A stretch of DNA of 64,000 nt, from NCBI GenBank assembly GCA_947258985.1, contig CAMYKI010000003.1, positions 24,222 through 88,221 of the forward strand. The letters run 5' to 3'. Below, one piece after another: positions 3,254-54,554 of this stretch; positions within the stretch are counted from its first letter, which is position 1; each line of letters opens with the position of its first letter. Below the pieces are notes generated by a model. That model had not been told where the DNA came from. It did no database searches and worked only from the letters and a program-made list of their open reading frames with translations. This DNA comes from an uncultured Acidimicrobiaceae bacterium. GTDB lineage: Bacteria; Actinomycetota; Acidimicrobiia; Spongiisociales; UBA5794. The translations under genes were made by a program, and so were the position numbers.

Positions 3254-3817
3254 ATGGCTGACCAGGCTCACTTCGAACGTGACGCAATGGAATATGCACC
3301 GCAGCTGTATTCCGCGGCGTTGCGGATGACGCGCAACCCCGCTGATGCTGAGGATGTTGTCCAGGAGACATACCTCAAGGCCTACCGGGCATATGCCACG
3401 TTCAAGGAAGGCACCAACCTCAAGGCGTGGCTGTACCGCATACTCACCAATACCTACATCAACCGCTACCGCAAGCAACAACGCCGGCCGTCCGAAGTGG
3501 AACTCGGCGAGTTGCAGGATCTCTATCTCTTCAAGAGATTGGGGGAGGCGTCAGGGGCCGAGCGCAGCACCGAGGAGTCGGTGCTGGAATCGATGGTTGA
3601 TGAAGACATCAAGGCTGCCCTGGAATCACTACCGGAGCGCTTCCGCATGCCGGTGTTGCTGGCAGATGTCGAAGGTTTTTCCTACAAGGAGATCGCTGAG
3701 ATAGTCGACGTTCCCATTGGCACCGTCATGTCCCGGCTGCATCGGGGAAGAAAAGCGCTCCAAAAGAAGTTGTGGTCTTTGGCTGAACAACGCGGACTCA
3801 CGGGACCCACTCAATGA
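3254..3817 (+). CDS. ECF RNA polymerase sigma factor (SigE/SigH/SigR-like)
   Basis: Sigma-70 region 2 ([14 protein letters not shown]...[15 protein letters not shown]) and region 4 ([44 protein letters not shown]). The stop overlaps the next start (ATGA). Confidence 0.8.
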
Positions 3818-4062
3818 ACGCAGGATGCGATCACGCAGTTGACTATCTGTACCAGTACATCGATGAAGAGTTGACCTGGGCGCGTCGAGTCAGGATTCGG
3901 TGGCATCTGCGAAGATGCGGAAAGTGCCTCGATGCATTCGATTTCGAGACCGAGCTCAAAACCCGGATCAGGGATTGCGGTGGGGATGAGCCACCTCAGG
4001 AACTTTTTGACCGACTCCGTGCGTTGATAGAGAAGGAGGCAGCGGAAGGTCAGGATATCTGA
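3814..4062 (+). CDS. anti-sigma factor, ZAS (zinc-binding anti-sigma) family, RsrA/RshA-like
   Basis: 82 aa with C-x23-HLRRCGKC, i.e. the H-x3-C-x2-C ZAS signature. Translationally coupled to the ECF sigma gene. Confidence 0.75.
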
Positions 4063-20236: not shown

Positions 20237-21067
20237 ATGAGGATCTTGATCGTGGGGCCGGGGCGAGCCGGTATGTCATTGGGAATGGCACTTGTCACGG
20301 CCGGTCACAAAGTCGTCGGTGTTGTGGGGCGAACCACGGAGTCGGCCCAGCACGGTGCGGCACTGGTGGGGACCTCCGCATTCACTCTCGATGACCGACT
20401 GCCCGCTTCCGATCTGCTCGTCATTGCTACTCGTGACAGCCAGATCGGTTCGATTGCTACGACCCTTGCCGACAAGGAGCCTGTCGCCGGCGCCGCAGTG
20501 CACGTATCCGGCTTGACCCCGCTCGACGTCCTCGAGCCGCTGCGGTCCATCGACATCGCAGTCGGGTCGTTCCATCCGCTGCAGACGTTGCCTACCCCCG
20601 AGGCGGGAGCGGCCCGGCTGCGCGGCGCCTATGTCGCCGTCACCGCGGAGCCCCCCCTGCTGCACGTTCTCCAGCAGCTCGCCGAGGACATCGGGGCGAC
20701 GCCGTTTCCTCTAGACGACGACGCAAAACCCCTCTATCACGCTGCAGCAGCTGCTGCCGCAAACTTCCCGCTCGCCGCCTTGTCGATGGCCGAGGATCTG
20801 TTTGCGGAAGCGGGCGTTCCCTGGGAGGCGGCCCGTCCGCTCGTCGAGGCCGTGGTAGCGAACGCGTTCGACCTCGGTCCCCGTGCCGCCCTCACCGGAC
20901 CGGTGGCCCGGGGAGACACAGCTACGGTGGCGGCGCAACTCCGCGCCGTCGAGGTCGAGTACCCGGCATGGCGGGTGGGTTTTGCCCGATTTGTCGAAGT
21001 TCTCGCCGCCCTGACCGGCCGATCCGAGGAGTTCGAATCTGTACTCAATGCCGAGGACGATCGCTGA
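20237..21067 (+). CDS. Rossmann-like NAD(P)-binding protein, DUF2520 family (conserved upstream of panC in actinobacteria)
   Basis: MRILIVGPGRAGMSLGMAL GxGxxG motif. Ala-rich C-terminal domain. Stop overlaps the panC ATG. Confidence 0.55.
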   Translation: MRILIVGPGRAGMSLGMALVTAGHKVVGVVGRTTESAQHGAALVGTSAFTLDDRLPASDLLVIATRDSQIGSIATTLADKEPVAGAAVHVSGLTPLDVLEPLRSIDIAVGSFHPLQTLPTPEAGAARLRGAYVAVTAEPPLLHVLQQLAEDIGATPFPLDDDAKPLYHAAAAAAANFPLAALSMAEDLFAEAGVPWEAARPLVEAVVANAFDLGPRAALTGPVARGDTATVAAQLRAVEVEYPAWRVGFARFVEVLAALTGRSEEFESVLNAEDDR

Positions 21068-50168: not shown

Positions 50169-51419
50169 ATGAACCCCTCGATTAGTCACGAGAAGATCAC
50201 CCAGCGCGCCCTGGACCTCATCGCCACGCCGTCGGTCACCGGTGACGAGCAGGCGGCGATCGATCTGGTGGCGAGTTGGCTGGAGCCGATCGCCGACGAG
50301 GTTGATCAATGGGTTACCCCGATGGCGGAACTGGAGCGTGACCCGGCGTACCCGGGGCGTGAGGTGGAGCGGGACATCGTTCCGGTTGTTGCCGCCCGGA
50401 TCGTCGGGAACCGTCCCGGCCCCACTCTTGTACTCACCGGCCACGTCGATGTAGTGCCGATCGGAGACCGGGGGCTCTGGACACGCGATCCCAGCGGCGA
50501 GGTCGATGGTGACGTGCTGTACGGGCGCGGGGCAGCCGACATGAAAGCCGGTCTCGTCGCGGCAGTCGAAGCGTTCAGCGTGCTCGCCGCGGAGCGCAGC
50601 TTTGCGGGTGAGGTCCGCTTCGTGGCGGTGCCCGGCGAGGAGGACGGCGGTACCGGCACGCTGGCCGCCATCCGGCGCGGCTGGACGGGCGACATGGTGA
50701 TCCTCACCGAGCCGACGGCCGACAGCGAGGGTCTGCGCATCGTGGTCGCTCACGGCGGCGCACTCACCTTCTCGATCGACGTATCGGGCCGCGCTGCCCA
50801 TGGTGCAACCCGGCTGCTCGGCGAATCGGCCCTCGACCACTTCTGGAAGGTGCACCGGGCGCTGCGTGATCAAGAGGCGGAACTCAACGCGGCCGAGACC
50901 GATCCGATCATGACTGCGCTTGGCTTGCCGTACCCGACGACGATTGGGATCGTGCACGGTGGCGAGTGGGCGTCCAATGTCATGGAACGACTGACCGCCG
51001 AGATCCGGGTCGGGGTCACCATTCACGAAACCATCGCTGAGGCGGAGGCGCGGTTCGAGCGAACGCTGCGTGCCGCGCTCGCCGGCGACCCGTGGCTCGA
51101 CGAACACCCCACAAAGATCACTCGCGCCGGGGCGGCGTTCGGATCGTCTCGAATTGATTTGCGGCATCCGCTGGTGGCTTCAGTCCGGGAGGCTGCAGCC
51201 ACCGTGGTCGGGGGGACACCCCCGACCGTCGGTGCGCCCTACGGATGCGATATGGCGCTGTGGGTGAGAGAGGCCGGAGCCGCCACCCTCGTGTTCGGGC
51301 CCGGCGATGTCGGCCACGCCCATGCCGTCGATGAGCACGTGAGCCTGCAGCAGGTAGCGGACGTCGCTGAGGTATTGGTGGCGACTGCGAGGCGCTTGCT
51401 GGGCGGTTCCGCGGCATAG
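50169..51419 (+). CDS. M20 family metallopeptidase (ArgE/DapE/succinyl-diaminopimelate desuccinylase-like)
   Basis: Metal-binding motifs LTGHVDVVP, GRGAADMKAG and the GEEDGGTG region. Confidence 0.7.
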   Translation: MNPSISHEKITQRALDLIATPSVTGDEQAAIDLVASWLEPIADEVDQWVTPMAELERDPAYPGREVERDIVPVVAARIVGNRPGPTLVLTGHVDVVPIGDRGLWTRDPSGEVDGDVLYGRGAADMKAGLVAAVEAFSVLAAERSFAGEVRFVAVPGEEDGGTGTLAAIRRGWTGDMVILTEPTADSEGLRIVVAHGGALTFSIDVSGRAAHGATRLLGESALDHFWKVHRALRDQEAELNAAETDPIMTALGLPYPTTIGIVHGGEWASNVMERLTAEIRVGVTIHETIAEAEARFERTLRAALAGDPWLDEHPTKITRAGAAFGSSRIDLRHPLVASVREAAATVVGGTPPTVGAPYGCDMALWVREAGAATLVFGPGDVGHAHAVDEHVSLQQVADVAEVLVATARRLLGGSAA

Positions 51420-51579
51420 CGTCGCGCCGGTAGGTGTCCTCTGGCCTGCCAGTCGTTCGTTAACGGGCTACCCACACACCCGTGCCGACCACCGGCCTCC
51501 GGACGCCCAAAGAGCTGAAACCGAGAACCACATTTCGGGCCGTTCCGTATTGGGGGGCACAGAGACGGAGGAGATAGAG

Positions 51580-51973
51580 GTGCGACGCATAGGGATCATG
51601 GTTGCGGTCTTCGCATTGCTGGTAGCCGCCTGCGGCACGAGCGACGCAGACGAGACAACCGCCACAAGTCAAGAGGCAGCGATAACCACGACCCAGGCGC
51701 CGGAGACCACTGCCGCGCCTGCCACAACTACGACAGAGGCCGTGGCTGCGGTGGCCGCCGCCGTCGCGCTATTTGTGGCTCTTCGAACACCTTCGCCCGA
51801 TTGGGTGGTTGCCATGCCCGGTACCGACCTGGCTCCCGTGGCGACATCGACGGTGGAGGGTTGGAACACTGATACCGGTACCCGCATGCTGCTGACGGTC
51901 GATGGGTCACACTCGAGCGCCTCGACGAGGACGAGAGTCCCTCGGGCGAAACGGTGCTTGACACGGGCGCGTA
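51580..51973 (+). pseudogene. possible lipoprotein gene with a frameshift (boundaries uncertain)
   Basis: The GTG at 51580 is preceded by GGAGGAG and encodes VRRIGIMVAVFALLVAACG (lipobox), then a Thr/Ala-rich linker. Downstream coding-like sequence continues in the +1 frame (..RWVTLERLDEDESPSGETVLDTGA*). In the original frame the ORF runs, through implausible Arg-rich sequence, into the DUF2892 gene. Confidence 0.3.
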
Positions 51974-52059
51974 GGCGACTCGTCGCCCCGTTTGTATCCA
52001 AATCCGAGGCTTGTTCGTCTTTATCACGTAAGTACAAGCACTCTGAGAAGGAGTCATCC

Positions 52060-52275
52060 ATGTCATTCATGAACGAAGCAAGCTGGGACCGGATCGCCCG
52101 TGTGGTTCTCGGTGTCGTCCTCATCTTCCTCGGGTTCTCGGGAACCGTCGAGGGTGGATTCGGAACTTTCCTCGGAATCCTTGGGTTCGTGCCCCTCGTC
52201 ACCGGATTGGCTGGTTGGTGCCCGCTCTATGCGATCTTCAAGTTCCGTACCAACCGCGAAACCGCTGAGATCTAG
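52060..52275 (+). CDS. DUF2892 (YgaP-like) small inner-membrane protein
   Basis: A GAAGGAG Shine-Dalgarno lies 7 nt upstream of the ATG. 71 aa with two TM helices and the conserved GW.PL motif (LAGWCPLYAIF). Confidence 0.65.
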   Translation: MSFMNEASWDRIARVVLGVVLIFLGFSGTVEGGFGTFLGILGFVPLVTGLAGWCPLYAIFKFRTNRETAEI

Positions 52276-52284
52276 GGTCCGGCG

Positions 52285-52740
52285 ATGTCGCATCTTGCCG
52301 ACTACACCCGGCCAACGCTGATCGAGATCATGGCTCCGCACTGTGTCGAGTGTCGGGCGATGCAGCCCGACCTCGACGCAGCGGCCGAGCAGCACGCAGA
52401 ATCGGTAGATCTGGTGGTGCTCGACGCAACCAAGGAGATGGACCGGGTAGCTTCGCTGCAGGTACTCGGCACACCTACGCTGATCGCCGTGAATGATGGT
52501 GTCGAGATTGCTCGGTTCGTCGGGCGGAGGTCGCGTTCGGAGCTCTCCGAGCTCTTTGTTGCGGTCGCCGCCGGAGCGGCGGATACCGTCCCGGCTTCCG
52601 GCCGGGGGGATCGGACGGTTTGGGCGATCGGCGGGGTATTGCTCGCCGCTGCCGGGCTACTCAGCGGACCGTCCTGGATTCTCGTCGCACTCGGGGCCGG
52701 TCTTGCCGGGTTTGCGGTGCTGCGGTCGGTGGCGGGCTGA
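52285..52740 (+). CDS. thioredoxin-like protein with C-terminal membrane anchor
   Basis: CxxC active site (APHCVECRAM) in a thioredoxin-fold-like N-domain. A Gly/Ala-rich TM segment sits at the C-terminus. Confidence 0.6.
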   Translation: MSHLADYTRPTLIEIMAPHCVECRAMQPDLDAAAEQHAESVDLVVLDATKEMDRVASLQVLGTPTLIAVNDGVEIARFVGRRSRSELSELFVAVAAGAADTVPASGRGDRTVWAIGGVLLAAAGLLSGPSWILVALGAGLAGFAVLRSVAG

Positions 52741-53480
52741 TGTTCAACACCGCGGATCTAGGTGATCATCTCGATGATCTCTACCGTTTTGCTCTGGCAA
52801 TTACCCGCAACCCCGACCAGGCGGGCGACCTCGTCCATGACACGGTCGTACGGGCTATTGAGCGACGGGATCAGTATCGCGACGACGGGTCCCTCGGAGC
52901 CTGGCTGCGACGCATTCTCCACAACCTCGCGATCGATCGGGCGCGCCGCTCCTCACGTGAGGTCGTCGTGGAGGAAGTCGAGGAGAAGTGGCAAGCCGAC
53001 GAGTACACAGTCGATCCGGCGATTGTTGCCGAGCGCGCCCAGACCAGAGAAGAGTTGGAGGACGCTCTGGTTCGTCTCCCCTTCGCCTACAGAACCGCGG
53101 TCGTTCTCCACGACGTCGAGGAATGGAAGGTGCGCGAGATAGCTGAGGTGCAAGGGATCTCATTGCCCGCGGCAAAGCAGCGCTTGCGGCGAGGCCGCAT
53201 GATGCTGGTAGCCGCGCTCGCCGAGGGCCACGAACGGCGCATGATGCTCAAGGAGGTACCGATGCGGTGCTGGGACGCTCGAAAACATGTATCCGACTAT
53301 CTCGACGGCGCGCTCGCACAAGACACTGCGTTCATGGTGGAGAGCCACCTCGAAGCTTGTCCCACCTGCCCCCCGCTGTATGCCGCACTTGTCGACGCCC
53401 ATAGTGGTCTGGTGGCTCACCGCGACCCCGACTCGGTGATTCCCCCCGATGTGCGCACAAGAATCCTGGCGCTTCGCTGA
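52740..53480 (+). CDS. ECF sigma factor fused in frame to a C-terminal ZAS anti-sigma domain
   Basis: Sigma region 2 (DLVHDTVVRAIER...WLRRILHNLAIDR) and region 4 (TAVVLHDVEEWKVREIAEVQGISLPAAKQRLRRGR) are followed, without a stop, by MRCWDARKH...HLEACPTCPP (C-x26-H-x3-C-x2-C). AAGGAGG plus an ATG at 53262 sit exactly at the start of the ZAS part. The ATG at 52740 overlaps the upstream stop. Confidence 0.7.
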   Translation: MFNTADLGDHLDDLYRFALAITRNPDQAGDLVHDTVVRAIERRDQYRDDGSLGAWLRRILHNLAIDRARRSSREVVVEEVEEKWQADEYTVDPAIVAERAQTREELEDALVRLPFAYRTAVVLHDVEEWKVREIAEVQGISLPAAKQRLRRGRMMLVAALAEGHERRMMLKEVPMRCWDARKHVSDYLDGALAQDTAFMVESHLEACPTCPPLYAALVDAHSGLVAHRDPDSVIPPDVRTRILALR

Positions 53481-53651
53481 GGCGCTCGGGTTCCCTCCGC
53501 AACCGGGTCAGGCGCCATGAATTCAGCCGAGCGTCGTCTTCCCTGTTGCGGTGGCGGCAACGCCGAAAGGCCGGGAGCAACCTCCCCGGCGGGCGTCACG
53601 GATGTGCCAGATCTCCGCAAGAATGTGTGGGCAAGGAGACAGGGAGGCATT

Positions 53652-54554
53652 GTGGCAACTGATTGGACGTTCAACGGGACCTGGCCGTACGAACCGAAAT
53701 GGTTTGACAGCAGCGATGGCCGGATGCACTACGTCGACGAGGGGCCCCGGGACGGCAAGGTCGTTGTGATGGCGCATGGCAACCCCACCTGGGGCTACCT
53801 ATATCGCAACTTCATCGGCGCTCTCGCCGATGCCGGGTATCGGGCGATTGTCCCCGATCACCTTGGCTTCGGTCGATCCGACAAGCCAGATCAGCCGGAG
53901 CTGTACACGATCCAGCGCCACAGCGAACGTTTCGAGGCATTGCTGGAGTCGTTGGATCTCCACGACGCAACCGTTGTGTGCCAGGACTGGGGTGGGCCGA
54001 TCAGCCTCTACTGGGCGACCCGGCATCCGGAACGAGTGCGGTCGCTGTTCATCCTCAATACCTTTGCGCATCGGCCGCCGACGGACGTGAAGCTTCCGCT
54101 GCCGATCAAGATGTTCCAGACCAAAGGCGTCGGCGAGACGCTGGTGAAGCGATTGCACCTTTTCGTGCGCGGTTTCCTCTTCAAGGCCGGGGTGGTCCAC
54201 AAGGATCGGTTCACCGCCGATGTCAAACGAGCGTATCTGGCACCCCATCCCACATACGCCAGCCGCACTCCAATTCTCGTGTTTCCCCGGGAGATCCCGG
54301 CGGGACCGGAGGGCGAAGTCTCCGATCTCAACGCTGAGATCGAAGCCGGTCTCGAGGAGCACTTCAGGAGCAAGCCGGTGAAGATCATGTGGGCCATGAA
54401 GGACATCGCCTTCACCCCCGAGATGGTCGATCAGCTCTGGTTGAAGACCTTCCCCGATGCCGAGGTGGAGCGTATCCCCGACGCCGGCCACTATCTCCAG
54501 GAGGACGCCCACGAGCGCATCGGACCCGCCCTGGTGAACTTCCTCGGTACCTAG
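53652..54554 (+). CDS. alpha/beta hydrolase, haloalkane-dehalogenase-like
   Basis: MHYVDEGPRDGKVVVMAHGNPTWGYLYR is the HGNP(T/S) motif. The nucleophile elbow has Asp (VVCQDWGG). The GTG at 53652 is preceded by GGGAGG. Confidence 0.7.
   Translation: MATDWTFNGTWPYEPKWFDSSDGRMHYVDEGPRDGKVVVMAHGNPTWGYLYRNFIGALADAGYRAIVPDHLGFGRSDKPDQPELYTIQRHSERFEALLESLDLHDATVVCQDWGGPISLYWATRHPERVRSLFILNTFAHRPPTDVKLPLPIKMFQTKGVGETLVKRLHLFVRGFLFKAGVVHKDRFTADVKRAYLAPHPTYASRTPILVFPREIPAGPEGEVSDLNAEIEAGLEEHFRSKPVKIMWAMKDIAFTPEMVDQLWLKTFPDAEVERIPDAGHYLQEDAHERIGPALVNFLGT

Follow-up and report, generated by a model that had tools for sequence, protein, structure and literature searches.

A conserved ECF sigma factor of Acidimicrobiia fused to a ZAS anti-sigma domain, with a putative nested start for the anti-sigma part

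In Actinobacteria, sigma factors of the extracytoplasmic function (ECF) groups ECF48, ECF52 (SCO4117) and ECF53 consist of an ECF core with a fused ZAS-like zinc finger and are seen as anti-sigma gene fusions; their extensions, which can reach approximately 400 residues, include extracytoplasmic parts and either one or two transmembrane helices, and it is thought that proteolysis releases them (PMC8999054). The same gene-fusion view of ZAS-extended ECFs is expressed in PMC5826349. Certain ECF270 members are also listed among the ECFs with regulatory extensions, and ECF270 and ECF271 are described as regulated by soluble ZAS proteins (PMC8999054). In Pseudomonas putida, IutY (ECF243) is a sigma/anti-sigma hybrid, and truncation of its anti-sigma part activates the sigma factor (PMC5411451). 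C-terminal ECF extensions are thought to have arisen repeatedly through gene fusion. Here we describe a sigma-ZAS gene found in a 64,000-nt stretch of DNA from an uncultured Acidimicrobiaceae bacterium (contig CAMYKI010000003.1; the whole stretch is referred to as the window), in which an ECF sigma factor and a ZAS anti-sigma domain are encoded by one open reading frame (ORF) and a Shine-Dalgarno (SD) sequence followed by an in-frame ATG is present at the domain boundary.

On balance, we favor the view that the gene belongs to a conserved, autoregulated operon, that the ECF sigma factor is inhibited by an RsrA-type ZAS domain on its own polypeptide, and that this ZAS domain is also translated separately. 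A more far-reaching proposal, which we put forward tentatively and rate at slightly below even chances, is that the one gene would supply two regulators, namely a sigma factor tethered to a redox-sensitive ZAS domain and free ZAS in surplus, translated from an internal ribosome-binding site that is under selection and exceeds the sigma start in strength. Together these would form a two-tier switch acting in cis and in trans. The free ZAS frame would, as far as we found, be the first case of an anti-sigma gene nested in a sigma gene, and it appears to have arisen secondarily, at the base of the Acidimicrobiia, in a gene that was already fused. From the evidence given below we infer cis-inhibition, the signal, autoregulation, initiation at the internal start and the function of the free product. 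The features of the gene are as follows, with coordinates given as positions in the window.

52740–53480, + strand: sigma-ZAS gene, a single ORF of 246 codons for an ECF sigma factor with a C-terminal ZAS anti-sigma domain, with no interrupting stop
52764–52958, + strand: sigma region 2, residues 9–73 (Pfam PF04542 Sigma70_r2, 56.5 bits)
53046–53207, + strand: sigma region 4, residues 103–156 (Pfam PF08281 Sigma70_r4_2, 51.4 bits)
53208–53261, + strand: sigma-to-ZAS linker, residues 157–174 (consensus ALAEGHERR..L.GVP)
53250–53256, + strand: internal SD AAGGAGG, codons K171-E172-V173, 5 nt before the internal ATG
53262–53264, + strand: in-frame ATG inside the ORF (Met175), where translation of a free 72-aa ZAS protein is proposed to begin
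53262–53477, + strand: ZAS (zf-HC2) anti-sigma domain, residues 175–246 (Pfam PF13490)
53268–53270, 53346–53348, 53358–53360 and 53367–53369, + strand: predicted zinc ligands C177, H203, C207 and C210

The uninterrupted frame of 246 codons and the AAGGAGG with its in-frame ATG, both reported in the initial annotation of the window, were confirmed at these positions. That annotation had made its reading depend on the C-terminal 72 aa being a zf-HC2/ZAS domain, and this piece in isolation was shown to match PF13490 with 38.1 bits (Pfam cut-off 22.2); in the full-length protein the match covered residues 179–210 with 35.7 bits. All three Pfam domains of the protein scored above the Pfam thresholds, and sigma region 3 was absent, only regions 2 and 4 being found. 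The protein matched TIGR02937 (sigma70-ECF) with 88.4 bits (cut-off 42.9), the superfamily being the sole NCBIfam level reached, and the sigma part is a member of the ECF (group 4) sigma-70 family. The nearest chains of solved structure to the sigma part were SigE and SigH of M. tuberculosis, and SigW was also found.

For comparison, a protein set of the 120 best protein clusters (70–100% identity) was drawn from NCBI, JGI, ENA, and Logan, and a genome scan with one genome per species yielded 486 loci encoding a relative, of which the best 80 (59–93% identity, in genomes of 60–75% GC) were analysed. Nearly all of these 80 are from Acidimicrobiia (Ilumatobacteraceae, Microthrixaceae, Iamiaceae, and Acidimicrobiaceae), with a few from Gaiellaceae or unclassified Actinomycetota. 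PF13490 and PF08281 were found together in 120/120 clusters, and PF04542 in all except a 208-aa truncated entry (P0095); the full-length cluster proteins were 236–271 aa. Alignment of the orthologous loci, proposed earlier as a check, showed sigma region 2 through ZAS to be encoded in one ORF in 80/80 related genomes, down to 59% identity, with a stop at the junction in none. Two of the three explanations considered in the initial annotation, recent loss of the stop codon and a sequencing error, are refuted by this open ORF, which is present in all clusters and genomes compared. The probability that the fusion is an assembly or sequencing indel artefact, or a very recent stop loss in this genome, is therefore regarded as negligible: the clusters are from independent sources and the genomes from separate species, the linker residues are kept at the amino-acid level, and the 1-nt indels present in three relatives (L081, L084, and L050, apparently long-read metagenome-assembled genomes (MAGs)) break the ORF and never create the fusion. 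Thus, the gene is a conserved fused gene across Acidimicrobiia. Since more distant fused representatives were found down to approximately 31% identity in an exhaustive HMMER search, soluble sigma-ZAS fusions of 250–300 aa are, as judged from sequence, a widespread architecture. Within the linker, residues G163, E165, R166, and P174 were invariant in all loci. The linker as a whole (residues 157–174) is conserved to a degree unusual for a linker, and could serve as a hinge, as a contact surface or as a processing site.

A search with the 72-aa ZAS sequence gave 105 short ZAS-only gene calls, many of them starting MRCWDAR and most on contigs of approximately 1 kb. As candidates for a natural split they were rejected, being due to contig ends, 1-nt indels or a chimeric contig. 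Gene callers choose MRCWDAR as the start on truncated or frameshifted contigs, and this was counted toward the internal start. The apparent split genes in L081 and L084 were likewise rejected as 1-nt indel frameshifts in long contigs with names suggesting long-read assemblies, and a 373-aa tail in L050 was discarded as a new domain because it is frameshift junk. The indel sites are at 2495–2501 (L081), at approximately 2451–2459 (L084) and past approximately 4680 (L050); in L081 the extra base lies in a CCC(G) run directly 5′ of the internal ATG, and ZAS is then annotated as a separate gene (MRCWDAR). In L082 (2384–2725) and L083 (2083–2424), a 74-aa ZAS-only gene with 80% identity to the window ZAS was found 3′ of a beta-lactamase-family gene; on the 5′ side of the ZAS-only gene are the final 18 codons of sigma and, in inverted orientation, a copy of sigma residues 133–157. 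The probable explanation is a chimeric contig, or else a single rearrangement, observed twice, that left a stand-alone ZAS with an SD-ATG. Besides, a partial second sigma copy (residues 110–221) adjoins the main gene in L067 (3152–3484), and the main gene of L013 has a distant ECF gene as its neighbor on the other strand (2034–2447, − strand).

Within the window, AAGGAG-N4-9-ATG was found four times against 1.8 expected, which is not beyond chance, so that the significance of the internal SD-ATG comes only from the comparison of loci. Codon and SD statistics at the internal start were based on 81 loci, and those for Gly172 on the 72 loci with Gly at this position. The codons before Met175 were shown to be GAA GGA GTN, AAA GGA GTN, AGA GGA GTN, CAA GGA GTN or AAG GAG GTA, and each of these variants yields A-GGAG with the core ending 5 nt 5′ of the ATG. 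Gly172 was encoded by GGA in 59/72 loci (82%), compared to 6–23% at the six further Gly columns conserved in these genes, and codon column 172 was the strongest codon-usage outlier of the ORF (log-likelihood ratio 68, next 35.6). At position 171, NNA codons are used where GAG, AAG or CAG are the norm, and Arg171 was AGA in 5/5 loci keeping the start codon; the ORF-wide usage in the same loci is 15% GGA for Gly, 34% GAA for Glu, 29% AAA for Lys and 2.2% AGA for Arg. The adjacent Val173 uses all four codons, which shows that the neighboring synonymous sites are saturated. The mean anti-SD pairing energy at the internal site was the lowest in the ORF (−8.7 kcal/mol, compared to an ORF mean of −1.4 with a standard deviation of 1.7). 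What was found is an in-frame start with an SD at proper spacing, conserved beyond amino-acid need. This comparison indicates that the internal SD-ATG is under selection at the nucleotide level and suggests that Met175 is used as a start codon. The predicted short product starts with M-R-C, and its distance to the first zinc ligand is as in stand-alone RsrA-like proteins (the copy in the window starts MNAGC).

Just 3′ of the internal ATG the GC content falls from approximately 0.70 to approximately 0.62, as expected at the 5′ end of a translated gene. Codons at 53265–53330 and the aligned codons of the 80 loci (L001–L080) lean toward A/T, with CAA at 78% for Gln182 (32% expected) and GAT at 44% for Asp179 (25% expected).

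Codon 175 was ATG in 74, TTG in one and CTG or CTC (Leu) in six of the 81 loci. The 75 loci with ATG or TTG all showed pairing energies of −7.8 kcal/mol or better, with a mean of −9.1 compared to −6.0 in the six Leu loci, which carry GAG GGT, CGG GGC, GAC GGC, GCG GGC or CGC GGG and all lack the GGAG core. A neighbor-joining tree placed Gaiellaceae, other Actinomycetota and the distant representatives P0121, P0122, and P0125 in a basal clade with Leu and no SD. The Acidimicrobiia crown has the ATG and the SD, two nested lineages (L039 and L063) having lost both together, and the TTG variant (L072) has retained AGAGGAG. Because the basal clade lacks the motif, the internal start looks derived; the fusion seems to be older than the internal start, which would have been gained secondarily and kept from then on. 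In 55/72 loci, the internal SD exceeded in strength every candidate SD of the sigma start (−9.1 compared to −6.5 kcal/mol), and the free ZAS domain could thus be made in excess. Of the remaining explanation in the initial annotation, a genuinely fused, self-inhibiting sigma factor with an anti-sigma part also made from the internal start, the fusion is genuine, and the internal start is supported comparatively by SD conservation at synonymous sites and by the joint loss of SD and ATG.

Another explanation of the same site is that only the full-length, self-inhibited sigma factor is made, and that the SD-like sequence and the Met are either the remnant of a two-gene operon or an elongation pause allowing sigma region 4 to fold, or zinc to be loaded, before ZAS emerges. 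In other fused ECFs, such as IutY and ECF52, regulation requires no more than the fusion, fused relatives without the Met or the SD exist and are presumably functional, compositional SD-like motifs occur elsewhere in the ORF (e.g., VEEVEE at −305), and mRNA unfolding at the internal site is weak. We nevertheless hold this explanation to be rather unlikely, at perhaps one chance in a few, since a remnant would not hold the rare codons GGA, AGA and NNA across lineages in which neighboring synonymous sites are saturated, and since the basal clade without the motif makes the motif look derived rather than ancestral. A pause gives no reason for a motif placed 5 nt before an in-frame ATG or TTG in 75 loci, nor for its weakening with CTG or CTC, and the crown clade keeps ATG although the protein tolerates the change from Met to Leu. 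Separate translation of ZAS from the internal start thus remains the reading we prefer.

The four putative zinc ligands C177, H203, C207, and C210 were invariant (69 proteins, 81 loci), and the arrangement H203-x3-C207-x2-C210 with C177 upstream is that of the motif of ZAS, the zinc-binding class I anti-sigma domain. The C-to-H spacing of 26 residues equals that of C11–H37 in RsrA. The sole sequence match of the C-terminal 81 residues to a solved structure was RsrA, a weak match (E 0.34), and ZAS aligned in register with RsrA C11/H37/C41/C44 and through RsrA helix 4. In an AlphaFold2 model, the linker helically extends the last helix of sigma region 4 (helix 142–170) and is followed by a 6-residue loop and four ZAS helices (177–188, 194–206, 210–225, and 236–245). 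The modeled sigma regions 2 and 4 superposed on anti-sigma-bound sigma factors (SigW/RsiW, TM-score 0.66, root-mean-square deviation (rmsd) 6.8; RpoE/NepR, 0.65; CnrH/CnrY, 0.59), whereas superposition on sigma factors bound to RNA polymerase was poor (TM-score 0.34–0.42, rmsd approximately 27). The closed sigma arrangement in the model fits intramolecular inhibition by ZAS. These observations also bear on the possibility that the C-terminal Cys/His domain binds a metal or a ligand and is needed to activate the sigma factor, as in CorE (ECF238), instead of inhibiting it. Sigma-activating Cys-rich C-terminal extensions are documented for CorE and CorE2 and have been suggested for ECF287 of Actinobacteria. 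We consider such a role improbable here, because the extension is a full-length zf-HC2 domain of 72 aa with four predicted helices that aligns with RsrA through helix 4, and not a Cys cluster of approximately 20 aa, because no CxC is present in the linker between sigma regions 2 and 4, and because the model adopts the anti-sigma-bound closed conformation. The extension of approximately 90 aa forms a zf-HC2 domain, and no cysteine was found at residues 72–93 between sigma regions 2 and 4, so that the protein does not fall into the CorE-like/ECF238 type.

The sigma-ZAS gene is the last gene of a small operon with the following upstream features.

51974–51987, + strand: terminator-like GC hairpin with T-rich tail, found by consensus scan just 5′ of the operon promoter
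51994–52019, + strand: ECF-type promoter, −35 GTATCC (51994–51999), 16-nt spacer, −10 CGTC (52016–52019)
52048–52053, + strand: SD AAGGAG of the DUF2892 gene
52060–52275, + strand: YgaP-like_TM/DUF2892 protein, a two-helix membrane protein of 71 aa (PF11127, 71.2 bits)
52285–52740, + strand: thioredoxin-fold protein of 151 aa (PF00085, 56.4 bits) with active-site CVEC and a C-terminal hydrophobic hairpin

In the window the promoter lies 40 nt 5′ of the DUF2892 ATG. The motif (T/G)GTATCC-N16-CGTC(T) was found in 69/69 loci with enough upstream sequence, 54–95 nt before the DUF2892 start and with GTATCC invariant, and it occurred essentially once per locus (615 kb, both strands); no second conserved promoter site was found in the 8.7-kb loci. 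We infer that the sigma-ZAS factor reads this promoter and is thereby autoregulated, and that DUF2892 and thioredoxin would be the core of its regulon. The lone other match in the window, GTATCC-N17-CGTC at 20504–20530 (+ strand), was rejected as a regulon site, as it lies inside an ORF (20237–21067) and is at chance level (0.5 expected). A search of the window for the SigR/SigH-type motif GGAAY-N17-19-GTTG gave only chance-level matches, and no known RNA elements were found in 51400–53600 at E ≤ 1. The terminator-like hairpin probably ends the preceding transcription unit.

The upstream genes named in the initial annotation, for DUF2892 (YgaP-like_TM) and a membrane-anchored CxxC thioredoxin-like protein, were confirmed by Pfam. 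The ATGA overlaps said to join them were absent: a 9-nt gap separates the DUF2892 stop (TAG, 52273–52275) from the thioredoxin ATG (52285), and the stop of the thioredoxin gene overlaps the sigma ATG by one base (TGATG, 52738–52742). The DUF2892 gene was found upstream of the sigma gene in approximately 72/80 loci, with the GxCP cysteine kept in 72/72, and the thioredoxin gene lay between the two in approximately 47/80, with the CxxC kept in 49/49. Almost every locus has an SD equivalent to that of the DUF2892 gene, showing canonical SD-led initiation to be in use in these organisms. The C-terminal hydrophobic hairpin of the thioredoxin-fold protein is a predicted membrane anchor, and the thioredoxin domain is probably cytoplasmic, because no signal peptide was found. 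No link between DUF2892 and sigma factors was described in the literature that could be searched. The alpha/beta hydrolase gene downstream in the window (53517–54554) is not part of the conserved unit, being absent downstream in 80/80 loci, and the neighborhood upstream of the operon is not conserved in related loci and differs even in the closest relative (L001).

An ORF at 51598–52059 (+ strand), which has a lipoprotein-like N-terminus (MVAVFALLVAACG), shares the frame of DUF2892, and no stop separates the two. The Arg-rich second half of the ORF looks non-coding, only a sub-threshold Spondin_N match was found, and the promoter and the terminator-like hairpin fall inside it. This ORF may be a decayed or mis-framed gene.

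In the proposed mechanism, a zinc-loaded ZAS domain would at rest fold back on sigma regions 2 and 4 of the same chain, keeping the sigma factor closed and unable to bind RNA polymerase. Oxidation or alkylation of C177, C207, and C210, or loss of zinc, would collapse ZAS and free the sigma part, which would then transcribe its own operon, i.e., DUF2892, thioredoxin where present, and sigma-ZAS. The internal SD and ATG at the sigma/ZAS boundary would drive separate translation of the 72-residue ZAS, so that a tethered inhibitor in cis and a free inhibitor in trans would coexist. The free ZAS would probably be a surplus, titratable pool acting in trans that raises the threshold, sharpens the response and speeds the shut-off. 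The thioredoxin-like product could help to reset the switch, newly made ZAS and thioredoxin together re-imposing inhibition.

Several observations weigh against this picture. The related loci are all from uncultured MAGs, and co-variation of SD and ATG rests on approximately three independent evolutionary events. In one Leu locus (L075) a G-rich stretch still gives −8.6 kcal/mol. Relaxation of the mRNA structure near the internal ATG is slight (mean z 0.4, with 72% of loci above the ORF mean), and no clean natural two-gene version was found among the 105 ZAS-only calls. The AlphaFold2 model is of moderate confidence (pLDDT 72, pTM 0.43). The thioredoxin gene is missing from approximately 40% of the loci. 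Many ZAS proteins are not redox sensors, and redox sensitivity is unreadable from sequence. Finally, the ZAS domain scored 30.0 bits against the RsrA equivalog TIGR03988, below its cut-off of 62.5. Because of this score and of the 79 bits of the sigma part against SigH_actino (cut-off 251.55), the fused protein is not a RsrA/SigH ortholog, and its ZAS domain would work like RsrA at most. The role as a thiol-stress sensor suggested in the initial annotation is plausible in the light of the four invariant RsrA-type ligands and of the CxxC thioredoxin found in more than half of the loci, and is weakened by the ZAS score below the RsrA threshold.

Among sigma factors, ECFs with fused domains are considered to be the one-component systems, in which the balance of the fused domain against the sigma factor has been little explored. 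With 246 aa, no membrane part and a defined promoter, the sigma-ZAS family would offer a compact soluble model and allow a direct comparison of inhibition in cis and in trans by the same ZAS from the same mRNA. If the conserved nested start is true, sigma/anti-sigma stoichiometry would be tunable by internal initiation and not by gene order or translational coupling, and the site would be a clear bacterial case of synonymous-site selection for an internal ribosome-binding site. The short ZAS product would be overlooked by annotation pipelines. For synthetic biology, the conserved pair of promoter and sigma factor is a candidate for an orthogonal, redox-gated switch. For DUF2892, a membrane protein that is small, widespread, functionally uncharacterized and marked by an invariant cysteine, the operon would be the first regulatory context in Acidimicrobiia.

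The window also contains a canonical pair.

3254–3817, + strand: SigH_actino sigma gene (TIGR02947, 265 bits, cut-off 251.55)
3814–4062, + strand: RsrA-like ZAS gene, 82 aa (TIGR03988, 61.5 bits, cut-off 62.5)

This conventional sigma/ZAS pair, joined by an ATGA overlap, was found as initially described. No strong SD precedes the start of the RsrA-like anti-sigma gene (3814), and the ZAS domains of the pair and of the fused gene are barely similar. As the canonical pair exists beside the fused gene, the genome holds two separate ZAS systems. Compared to SigR-RsrA and SigH-RshA (ECF12), the fused system shares an ECF sigma factor with a small soluble ZAS of the form Cys-26 residues-His-x3-Cys-x2-Cys, and a thioredoxin-type gene under the same control, which suggests a feedback loop. 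However, sigma and ZAS are separate genes in those systems and a single polypeptide here, the partner genes here encode DUF2892 and a membrane-anchored thioredoxin, and the putative anti-sigma start is preceded by a strong SD of its own and not coupled through ATGA. The promoters differ as well: SigR and SigH recognize GGAAT-N18-GTT, whereas the operon of the fused gene has GTATCC-N16-CGTC.

The fused protein resembles ECF48, ECF52, and ECF53 in having an actinobacterial ECF core followed by a ZAS-like domain in the same ORF, but it ends 36 residues past C210, contains no hydrophobic segment and is predicted to be soluble; no internal start in these three groups was described in the literature that could be searched. 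With ECF270 and ECF271, compared by description, it has a soluble ZAS-type regulator in common, whereas the listed ECF270 examples are from Acidobacteria, Chloroflexi, and Anaeromyxobacter. IutY likewise has sigma and anti-sigma domains from one gene, but is of the FecI/FecR type, membrane-spanning and subject to Prc/RseP proteolysis, with no ZAS and no reported nested product.

In-frame internal initiation yielding a C-terminal fragment that works with the full-length protein is known for SpaO/YscQ of type III secretion systems, for CheA-L/CheA-S and for the IF2 isoforms. These cases share with the sigma-ZAS gene an in-frame start with its own SD at a domain boundary and a stand-alone C-terminal domain. 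The proteins are unrelated, and the short product is shown experimentally there, whereas here it is suggested by sequence conservation. We know of no sigma/anti-sigma pair among the internal-initiation cases, and no nested anti-sigma product from a fused sigma gene was described in the literature that could be searched. Sigma/anti-sigma fusions are thus of an established kind, and what is new in the sigma-ZAS gene is its conserved putative nested start.

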